64,000 nt of DNA, from NCBI GenBank assembly GCA_964610735.1, contig CAZSYH010000004.1, forward strand, positions 5,299-69,298. Direction: 5' to 3'. The stretch comes from an uncultured Syntrophaceae bacterium. GTDB lineage: Bacteria; Desulfobacterota; Syntrophia; Syntrophales; UBA2210. Shown piece by piece: positions 41,134 to 41,839 of this stretch. Under the pieces are notes generated by a model. The model did no database searches. It had not been told where the DNA came from and was given only the letters and a program-made list of their open reading frames with translations. Within the stretch, counting starts at the first letter, position 1; every line of letters starts with the position of its first letter. A program made the translations under genes and the position numbers.

Positions 41134-41358
41134 TTATGCTGCCAGACTTCCAAGGCTGCAACCTCCTGAGGCAGATGCCCCTGCCCGGCATCTCCCTGTG
41201 GCGGATGACCCATTATTGCAATTTAATGGGGCGGGTCCTCCGACAGTCGATCCGAGGCTGCATTGATTGGTAGCGTAAACTCCCGATTTACAATTGTTTT
41301 TCCCCTCGGCCCTGTCTTCCATGGCGAAATCTATCAGGAGAGGCTTCTCATAATTCAT
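41134..41358 (-). CDS. RiPP precursor peptide, copy 1 (74 aa, 5 Cys)
   Basis: ATG at 41358 is preceded by AAGGAGGAAATGCC (a strong SD). Sequence: MNYEKPLLIDFAMEDRAEGKNNCKSGVYATNQCSLGSTVGGPAPLNCNNGSSATGRCRAGASASGGCSLGSLAA. It lies inside the 126-aa ORF call. Confidence 0.75.
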   Translation of the reverse strand: MNYEKPLLIDFAMEDRAEGKNNCKSGVYATNQCSLGSTVGGPAPLNCNNGSSATGRCRAGASASGGCSLGSLAA

Positions 41359-41567
41359 GGCATTTCCTCCTTTTTTAAACGTGTCTCCGGGAAAAGCCCC
41401 TTGCTGGTTGCCTCCTGGCAGTACCAGAAGGGAGCCCAGAGATTTTTGTTCAGGTAGTAATTCTGAGCTATACAGTTTCCCAGACAGATACTCTTTAAAA
41501 GACATTTCCCGCAAATACCCTCGAGACGATCAGGGAGACCCTCGCGAAGTTCCCGGAGTATGGGAGA
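41359..41567 (-). pseudogene. Duplicated 3' fragment of the radical SAM/SPASM gene (no start codon); it supplies the SD and upstream context for precursor copy 1
   Basis: Encodes in frame 'SPILRELREGLPDRLEGICGKCLLKSICLGNC...KKEEMP*'. It differs from 41840-42048 at 4 positions by hand count. Confidence 0.8.
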
Positions 41568-41611
41568 TGTGCGTAGGATGTTTTATCTTTCAAACTCAAA
41601 CTGACCTTGTT

Positions 41612-41839
41612 TCATGTTGCCAGACTTCCAAGGCTGCAACCTCTTGAGGCAGATGCTCCTGCCTGGCATTTACCTGCGGCGGCTGACCCATTCTTGCAAT
41701 TTCCTGGAACGGGCCCTCCTCCCACATCCGATCCAAGGCTGCATTTATTAGCGGCGGAAGCCCCCGATTTACAGTTGTTTTTCCCCTCGGCCCTGTCTTC
41801 CATGGCGAAATCTATCAGGAGAGGCTTCTCATAATTCAT
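41612..41839 (-). CDS. RiPP precursor peptide, copy 2 (75 aa, 5 Cys)
   Basis: The ATG (41839-41837) overlaps the rSAM stop codon as ATGA, and the same SD precedes it. Sequence: MNYEKPLLIDFAMEDRAEGKNNCKSGASAANKCSLGSDVGGGPVPGNCKNGSAAAGKCQAGASASRGCSLGSLAT. Confidence 0.8.
   Translation of the reverse strand: MNYEKPLLIDFAMEDRAEGKNNCKSGASAANKCSLGSDVGGGPVPGNCKNGSAAAGKCQAGASASRGCSLGSLAT

Follow-up and report, generated by a model that had tools for sequence, protein, structure and literature searches.

A stretch of 64,000 nucleotides (nt) from an uncultured Syntrophaceae bacterium (GenBank assembly GCA_964610735.1, contig CAZSYH010000004.1, positions 5,299 to 69,298; called the window below) contains, with a probability of roughly 0.85, a tandem pair of duplicated genes, each of which specifies a ribosomal precursor peptide of the ScmA type that belongs to a SynChlorMet cassette. 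Membership in this cassette was judged by the curated cutoffs of NCBIfam, using the bit score of each gene. As ScmC, ScmD, ScmE, and ScmF all score above their cutoffs (Table 1), the locus is, by these profile matches, a SynChlorMet cassette. On the minus strand its genes are arranged in the order scmD-scmE-scmF-scmA2-scmA1-scmC, followed by the genes of a signal peptidase I (SpI)-like protein and of an NTP_transf_5 protein. Since both the cassette and its precursor family have been catalogued before, the two peptides are to be regarded as divergent, duplicated members of that family and not as a new system.

The leader specified by copy 2 (scmA2) is M-N-YEKPLLIDF...AEG, and five C-x-x-G-[SA]-x-A units make up the core. 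Copy 1 (scmA1) has the same leader and a diverged core; beyond the shared motif both leaders read D-F-A-M-E-D-R-A-E-G. Alignment bears out an earlier claim, made in the initial annotation of the window, that the copies agree in all of their first 26 residues and that 14 substitutions and one indel separate the cores. The Cys residues of the 75-amino acid (aa) peptide are located at positions 23, 33, 48, 58, and 68, giving the pattern C-x9-C-x14-C-x9-C-x9-C, and the 74-aa peptide has x13 in place of x14 in the second gap; the x8 spacing given in that annotation was a miscount. The sole NCBIfam match of both peptides is the ScmA precursor model TIGR04252 (24.8 bits and E 1.9e-5 for copy 2, 22.7 bits and E 8.6e-5 for copy 1, at a cutoff of 35). 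Their YEKP leader aligns to positions 1-33 and 1-49 of this profile. In a local copy of Pfam, no family was found for the peptides. Both had been called unannotated, which is correct for the list of open reading frames (ORFs) of the window but not for public gene calls, where P0001, unnamed and 75 aa long, is identical to copy 2, and P0006, also unnamed, is copy 1 over-extended to 123 aa.

In all five genome loci recovered with ScmF (L001-L005), a peptide starting with M-x-(K)YEKP is encoded immediately after scmF. The metagenome-assembled genomes (MAGs) involved are named Syntrophaceae, Deltaproteobacteria, Calditrichaeota, and Aminicenantes. Further loci were reached via the peptides or via ScmC, and a Cys-repeat peptide with a YEKP-type leader lies beside the maturases in L001-L005 and in L008-L014. 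The initial annotation had proposed to look for the leader and the Cys pattern next to homologous maturases; when this was done, both were conserved in every locus examined. A word-indexed profile search yielded 27 relatives of the peptides, while an exhaustive profile search yielded 458 representative clusters at E<=1e-3, nearly all of 50-125 aa; the clusters of the family (~450) were counted at 50 % identity. P0146 (816 aa, with DCPDGSSDVK repeats) and P0213 were discarded as repeat-driven false positives of the profile search. The leader signature of the family is Y-E-K-P-[LVI]-[LI], and its core consists of 3 to ~20 decapeptide repeats of the form C-x-x-G-[SAT]-[ST]-A-x-x-x. Gly occupies position +3 in 94 % of the 131 units of the repeat logo, and 57 of 103 gaps have the x9 spacing. 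As judged from these gene neighborhoods, the ScmA-like peptide family travels with ScmD, ScmE, and ScmF. The carriers of the cassette are diverse and mostly uncultured, with MAGs named Syntrophaceae, Nitrospirae, Brocadiia, Aminicenantes, Calditrichaeota, and KSB1. Among cultured bacteria, the cassette is present in Syntrophobacter fumaroxidans and Chlorobium limicola.

Some loci differ in the number or arrangement of the precursors. An expanded cluster in a Brocadiia genome (L012, GCA_052360965.1, 4800-18712) has six Cys-repeat precursors with YE(x)P leaders, together with a sulfotransferase-like gene, two extra radical S-adenosylmethionine (rSAM) genes, an ABC exporter, ScmC, an SpI-like gene, and an NTP_transf_5 gene. 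In a KSB1 genome (L013, GCA_034505495.1), two ScmA-like ORFs (1259-1519 and 1736-1990) without a public gene call lie between an rSAM gene and scmC; they specify the leaders KKYQKP and RKYQKP, each followed by four Cys units. A natural fusion of 230 aa (P0275, L016 196-888) joins a ScmD-like PqqD domain, 57 % identical to ScmD of the window, to a Cys-repeat precursor with a YEKP leader. It is present on three contigs beside an Exosortase_EpsH gene; the short contig holds no rSAM gene. An apparent fusion of PqqD and core beside ScmC in L015 looks frameshifted and was not used.

The two copies arose by a tandem duplication (Table 1), the unit of which comprises scmF codons ~304-378 and scmA as well as the initial 8 codons of scmC. 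A tblastn search finds ScmF residues 304-378 repeated with a 92 % match, and the duplicated scmF fragment differs from the true 3' end of scmF at 6 positions in 211 nt. Two independent assemblies of the Joint Genome Institute (JGI), L006 and L007, show the same structure, which is therefore not an artefact of the present assembly. The duplicated first 8 codons of scmC (TTG AGT TTG AAA GAT AAA ACA TCC, ~41574-41600 on the minus strand) open a stub ORF of ~34 codons that follows scmA2 and runs into the scmF fragment.

The divergence between the copies is a mosaic: 6 differences in the 211 nt of the scmF part, none in the first 19 codons of scmA, and 26 in the 165 nt of the core. The contrast between the 5' 268 nt, with 6 differing sites, and the core is significant (Fisher p = 4e-7). 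In the core, dS is 0.28 and dN 0.14 (synonymous and nonsynonymous divergence), giving a dN/dS of ~0.5. The cores of the two copies are 85 % identical to each other, a divergence similar to that between the window and the single-copy ortholog in L001 (82 % identity), and the 3' end of scmF is 84 % identical between the window and L001. Positive selection as the sole cause of an identical leader and a diverged core was rejected, as dS in the core is also high. A diversity-generating retroelement was rejected because the substitutions are not A-biased. An older duplication followed by gene conversion of the 5' part, or the import of a core patch, fits these sequence comparisons better.

An improbable alternative is that only copy 2 is functional and that copy 1 is an uncoupled by-product of the duplication, either decaying or silent. 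Copy 1 follows a dead scmF fragment and the stub ORF with the duplicated scmC codons, its start is misplaced by public gene callers, and a single copy suffices in the close relatives L001 and L002. Nevertheless, copy 1 retains the Shine-Dalgarno (SD) sequence, spacer, ATG, and leader of copy 2 without any change. Moreover, its 14 substitutions spare all 15 motif positions, that is, every Cys, Gly(+3), and Ala/Val(+6) (P ~0.005), which, with the dN/dS of the core, argues that copy 1 is constrained rather than a decaying remnant. Clusters with multiple precursors are also common elsewhere, as in L012 and L013. Both copies are thus, by their substitution pattern, under constraint.

ScmD is a PqqD-type protein (PF05402, 65 bits) of the kind known as discrete recognition elements (RREs) for peptides that are made by the ribosome and modified after translation (RiPPs). 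Its best match in the PDB is LppB (9x8z_B, E 1.3e-5), followed by the lasso peptide RREs TbiB1 and TfuB1. LppB is part of the biosynthesis of linear polyphosphorylated peptides (LPPs) and is a discrete RRE that binds a YxxP leader (PMC13381572). The initial annotation had proposed that the leader of the peptides is of the RRE-bound type. At the sequence level this is supported by the presence of Y-x-x-P-x-L, the motif bound by the discrete RREs of lasso peptides and LPPs (PMC13381572), and by the match of ScmD to LppB.

The two rSAM/SPASM proteins ScmE and ScmF are paralogous but only ~25 % identical. The motifs CxxxCxxC and CX2CX5CX3C are visible in both translations, and PF04055 and PF13186 are recorded on their homologs. 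The closest solved relative of ScmE is the sactionine synthase SkfB, albeit a remote one (E 2e-20). The true start of scmF is probably the ATG at 42942. Nearly the entire spacer between the scmE stop and this ATG is filled by a heptanucleotide array, (AGTGAAY)n, of ~14.6 copies (42945-43053). The array is identical in L007, which is from the same population, and absent from L001, L003, L004, L005, L012, and L014; with its period of 7, slippage could alter the length of the spacer or the expression of scmF.

Formation of thioethers on the Cys repeats is plausible, a reasonable guess from the sequences. That these repeats are the target of the rSAM enzymes is suggested by the nearest solved relative of ScmE being SkfB and by two kinds of reduced loci. 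Locus L011 has ScmD, ScmE, ScmF, and a Cys-repeat peptide with a YxxP leader but lacks ScmC, the SpI-like peptidase, and NTP_transf_5. In the sister lineage L008-L010 (ScmE 82 % identical, in the same exopolysaccharide (EPS) context), scmF has been lost while ScmE and a 5-Cys peptide are kept, from which ScmF appears to be dispensable and ScmE looks like the primary enzyme. A remnant of scmF is left there as a 5' stub with a premature stop, ATGACAGCCACAAAAGAAAAACGGAAATTTTAG, between the end of scmE and the peptide gene (~6842 and 7001, respectively, in L008).

Downstream of the peptide genes, ScmC has an HPrK-like P-loop match; K166 and D182 of the protein are invariant and D183 nearly so. An AlphaFold2 (AF2) model of ScmC has a mean predicted local distance difference test (pLDDT) score of 89.4, and its best PDB fold matches are phosphoenolpyruvate (PEP) carboxykinases. 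The PEP carboxykinase fold superfamily is also that of the catalytic domain of HprK. Both the sequence and the model point to ScmC as a probable peptide Ser kinase. The SEC11 alignment of the SpI-like protein covers the catalytic Ser, His, and Asp motifs (SM, HRV, and GDNN), making this protein a candidate leader peptidase. The ORF list starts it at a TTG (39543-40292, minus strand, 249 aa), overlapping scmC by ~100 nt, whereas its homologs and the JGI call start at the internal ATG at 40193 (216 aa), just before the catalytic GSSM motif. In P0138, P0139, and P0142 (407-497 aa), ScmC is naturally fused to a signal-peptidase-like Peptidase_S24 domain, in support of the kinase-like protein being functionally linked to the leader peptidase. 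The NTP_transf_5 gene is syntenic in L001, L004, L008-L010, L012, and L014; at its position in L003 lies a 434-aa ORF for which tblastn gave no match. The genes of ScmC and of the SpI-like protein are likewise syntenic in relatives. Judging by this gene order and these fusions, the pathway also includes the genes of the kinase-like, the signal-peptidase-like, and the nucleotidyltransferase protein.

Based on sequence comparison and analogy, we read the Scm cassette as an LPP-like module to which two rSAM/SPASM enzymes have been added. In the proposed mechanism, ScmD would bind the YxxPxL leader in the manner of LppB and of the B1 proteins of lasso peptides. ScmE and, secondarily, ScmF would then perform radical chemistry at the Cys repeats, with thioether cross-links as the most likely product. 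By analogy with the many LPP-cluster kinases that also carry TIGR04249, ScmC may phosphorylate Ser in the core. The archaeal-type signal-peptidase-like enzyme might remove the leader when it is presented by ScmD, and the NTP_transf_5 protein could further decorate the phosphate. The boundary between leader and core was guessed as AEG|K. Analogy with LPPs did not help to place it, since at the distance from the Tyr that is seen in LPPs the +3 position is not a Ser, and AEG|K is thus still a guess.

Somewhat less probable still than a nonfunctional copy 1 is the view that only the LPP-like module acts on the peptides and that ScmE and ScmF have some other substrate, such as a polysaccharide or a cofactor. 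LPP systems function without any rSAM enzyme, L008-L010 do without ScmF, polysaccharide genes abound in the locus, and the best secondary matches of ScmF are AhbD/NirJ and the sugar decarboxylase BlsE. However, L011 combines ScmD-ScmE-ScmF with a Cys-repeat YxxP peptide although the rest of the LPP-like module is missing, ScmE and ScmF have no RRE of their own and are encoded directly after the discrete RRE ScmD, and the invariant Cys/Gly repeat unit is present wherever ScmE occurs.

Several points weigh against our reading of the locus as a source of ScmA-type precursors that are processed by the cassette. Both peptides stay below the curated ScmA cutoff. The nearest characterized relatives of ScmF, BlsE and AhbD/NirJ, are not peptide maturases. 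The leader shares only Y-x-x-P-x-[LVI]-[LI] with the LPP motif and lacks FETxxS, the part that would place the cleavage site and the phospho-acceptor Ser. An AF2 model of the PqqD::precursor fusion P0275 has a mean pLDDT of 52.6, too low to show docking of the leader. Among the genes of the window that were scanned from ~23.2 to 46.1 kb, none was recognized as an MsbA-type exporter or ABC transporter; L012 and L014 do carry ABC genes. A literature search on the cassette, the TIGR accessions, the Scm genes, and the seed organisms retrieved neither an experimental paper on the SynChlorMet cassette nor data on expression, on binding, or from mass spectrometry for any Scm cassette. With respect to the first point, none of 20 other peptides of the family reaches 35 bits, including ones beside ScmE/F (best 28.1), which indicates that TIGR04252 is narrower than the family. 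By these scores, the peptides of the window are typical of what the curated ScmA model misses.

The translation starts of both peptides are, as read from the sequence, the internal ATGs behind AAGGAGG. The 74- and 75-aa translations proposed initially match exactly the minus-strand translations of the two scmA intervals in Table 1, and the AAGGAGG 7 nt before each ATG can be read directly in the sequence. In the ORF list, the peptides are embedded in ORFs of 126 aa (copy 1) and 127 aa (copy 2) with TTG starts, in which 52 codons precede each internal ATG. These codons had been attributed to an out-of-frame reading of rSAM gene sequence, and they indeed stem from the 3' end of scmF for copy 2 and from its duplicated fragment for copy 1. 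The longer ORFs are thus, on comparison of the frames, artefacts of the scmF 3' end or its duplicate. The homologous peptides of L001-L005 likewise start with M-x-YEKP, upstream of which the frame stays open for just 4-14 codons, with whole stop-to-stop ORFs of 61-86 aa; this includes L001, the ScmF of which is 86 % identical to that of the window. The view that translation starts at the upstream TTG and yields the proteins of 126 and 127 aa can practically be dismissed. In its favor, the frames are open in the window, and copy 1 was given 123 aa by one public caller. Against it, scmF or its fragment occupies the additional codons in a different frame, stop codons close the extension in every related locus, which excludes the longer reading, a strong SD precedes the internal ATG, and the N-termini of the family align at M-x-YEKP.

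The frame of scmF ends in ...GAA ATG CCA TGA, and the ATG of copy 2 overlaps this stop codon as ATGA (41839-41836), confirming an overlap noted before. From this arrangement we infer translational coupling of copy 2 to scmF, confined to this lineage; in more distant loci the spacer before the peptide gene is ~25 to 150 nt. No terminators or attenuators were found between the genes, and an Rfam search gave no regulatory RNA, just one tRNA.

The cassette heads a long minus-strand EPS locus of the Wzx/Wzy type (23193-36745 and 44478-46076). This locus contains genes for a Wza-like protein, an O-antigen-ligase/Wzy-like protein, an MOP flippase (Wzx-like), glycosyltransferases, an FkbM methyltransferase, and a Wzc-like protein of 1006 aa with a C-terminal SPOR/FtsN-like region. 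Upstream of the cassette are a gene for a Wzb-like low-molecular-weight phosphatase and the AAA_22 gene, which resembles XrtA-associated ATPases. The latter lies directly upstream of scmD and is a conserved neighbor in L008, L009, and L014; L014, from Nitrospirae, shows the same pairing of cassette and EPS genes. Another conserved neighbor of the cassette is the gene of an HD_5/HD-domain protein (37184-38296, plus strand), with a convergent orientation in both the window and L010; in L014 it lies between AAA_22 and scmD and is co-oriented.

Table 1 Features of the SynChlorMet locus in the window
Feature	Coordinates	Strand	Evidence or remarks
AAA_22 ATPase, XrtA/PEP-CTERM-ATPase-like	44478..45275	-	TIGR03015 234.5 bits, below cutoff 324.5
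scmD, discrete PqqD-type RRE	44155..44472	-	TIGR04248 125.4 bits, cutoff 100
scmE, radical SAM/SPASM	43039..44148	-	TIGR04250 622.4 bits, cutoff 400
scmF, radical SAM/SPASM	41836..42972	-	TIGR04251 615.8 bits, cutoff 400
Tandem duplication	41090..42048	.	Tandem Repeats Finder (TRF): 481-bp unit, 2.0 copies, 92 % matches, score 1653
Shine-Dalgarno AAGGAGG, copy 2	41853-41847	-	7-nt spacer AAATGCC, ATG 41839-41837; direct sequence reading
scmA copy 2	41612..41839	-	75-aa precursor, coordinates include stop codon; translation
Duplicated nonfunctional scmF 3' fragment	41359..41569	-	Source of the 52 spurious codons of the 126-aa ORF
Shine-Dalgarno AAGGAGG, copy 1	41372-41366	-	ATG 41358-41356; copied along with the scmF 3' fragment
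scmA copy 1	41134..41358	-	74-aa precursor, coordinates include stop codon; translation
scmC, HprK/PEPCK-fold P-loop protein	40195..41121	-	TIGR04249 285.9 bits, cutoff 125
Archaeal/ER-type signal peptidase I-like	39543..40193	-	216 aa from ATG; TIGR02228 63.4 bits, cutoff 51.85
NTP_transf_5 "uncharacterised nucleotidyltransferase"	38438..39556	-	PF14907 141 bits

The SynChlorMet cassette has been catalogued in TIGRFAMs/NCBIfam with ScmA as its named precursor family, and the curated model missed every cassette-linked peptide that was tested. What is new here is that, by sequence, ScmD, ScmC, the SpI-like peptidase, and the NTP_transf_5 protein match the core LPP enzyme set. This match translates into steps that can be tested, namely binding of the leader, phosphorylation of Ser, removal of the leader by the SpI-like enzyme, and cross-linking by the rSAM enzymes. 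It would also extend LPP-like chemistry, assigned by analogy, and its unexplained association with polysaccharide loci beyond the Bacillota. Further additions are the breadth and repeat motif of the family, the detection failure of the ScmA model, and the mosaic duplication. The window offers two natural substrate variants with an identical leader and a clear repeat motif, as well as a complete enzyme set that can be co-expressed. We tentatively suggest, at clearly less than even odds, that SynChlorMet represents an undescribed hybrid RiPP class in which a two-enzyme rSAM module would cross-link a Cys decapeptide repeat. Its LPP-type part would consist of RRE-guided Ser (poly)phosphorylation, leader removal by the SpI-like enzyme, and phospho-decoration by NTP_transf_5, and its product would be tied to the EPS/biofilm matrix. 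If so, this would be a rigid, phosphorylated, and possibly glycosylated peptide with a functional connection to the production of exopolysaccharide or biofilm matrix.

Among known systems, the LPPs of Bacillota are defined by this very enzyme set in a 2026 study in Nat Commun (PMC13381572). LppK is an HprK-like kinase that polyphosphorylates Ser3 of the core, LppS is an SpI-like peptidase that cleaves only when LppB presents the leader, and LppN is an NTP_transf_5 protein; the clusters also encode an MsbA-type exporter (PMC13381572). They are embedded in capsular-polysaccharide loci and have been described as restricted to Bacillota, and their leader motif is YxxPxVLxHQxIxFETxxS (PMC13381572). 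The domain table of that study lists TIGR04249 (ScmC) on 67 of 152 "HprK kinases," TIGR02228 on 126 of 126 SpI proteins, and NTP_transf_5 as the LppN class (PMC13381572). The Scm cassette shares with these clusters the PqqD RRE, the TIGR02228 peptidase, the TIGR04249-type HprK-like kinase, NTP_transf_5, and the location in a polysaccharide locus, as well as YxxPx[LVI] leaders and one to three precursors per cluster. It differs in its two added rSAM/SPASM enzymes, which argue that the product is not simply linear, in its Cys-repeat core, and in having neither an MsbA-type exporter nor the FETxxS cleavage/phosphorylation motif; its relatives are by name Syntrophaceae and delta-proteobacterial MAGs and not Bacillota.

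A similar pair of enzymes is known from the tailoring of lasso peptides of the paeninodin/pseudomycoidin type. These systems also have an HprK-family kinase with a DD metal site together with an "uncharacterised nucleotidyltransferase," both of which act on a Ser of a precursor with a YxxP/WxxP leader. In the case of pseudomycoidin, the homologous pair PsmK/PsmN phosphorylates Ser and then adds hexose to the phosphate (PMC6993621). Neither a lasso macrolactam synthetase (C) nor a B2 cysteine protease was found among the genes of the cassette, and the product is therefore not a lasso peptide. Sactipeptide and ranthipeptide systems (SkfB, CteB, and PapB) resemble the cassette in their rSAM/SPASM enzymes with CX2CX5CX3C and their Cys-rich cores, whereas here the RRE is a separate protein instead of an N-terminal domain, two paralogous rSAM enzymes are present, and the substrate is a regular decapeptide repeat. 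The catalogued SynChlorMet/ScmA systems have the same four enzyme/chaperone genes above the cutoffs and a small peptide gene after scmF, albeit that the peptides of the window are 74-75 aa long with five repeats, as compared to a model of 49 positions, and are encoded in two tandem copies.

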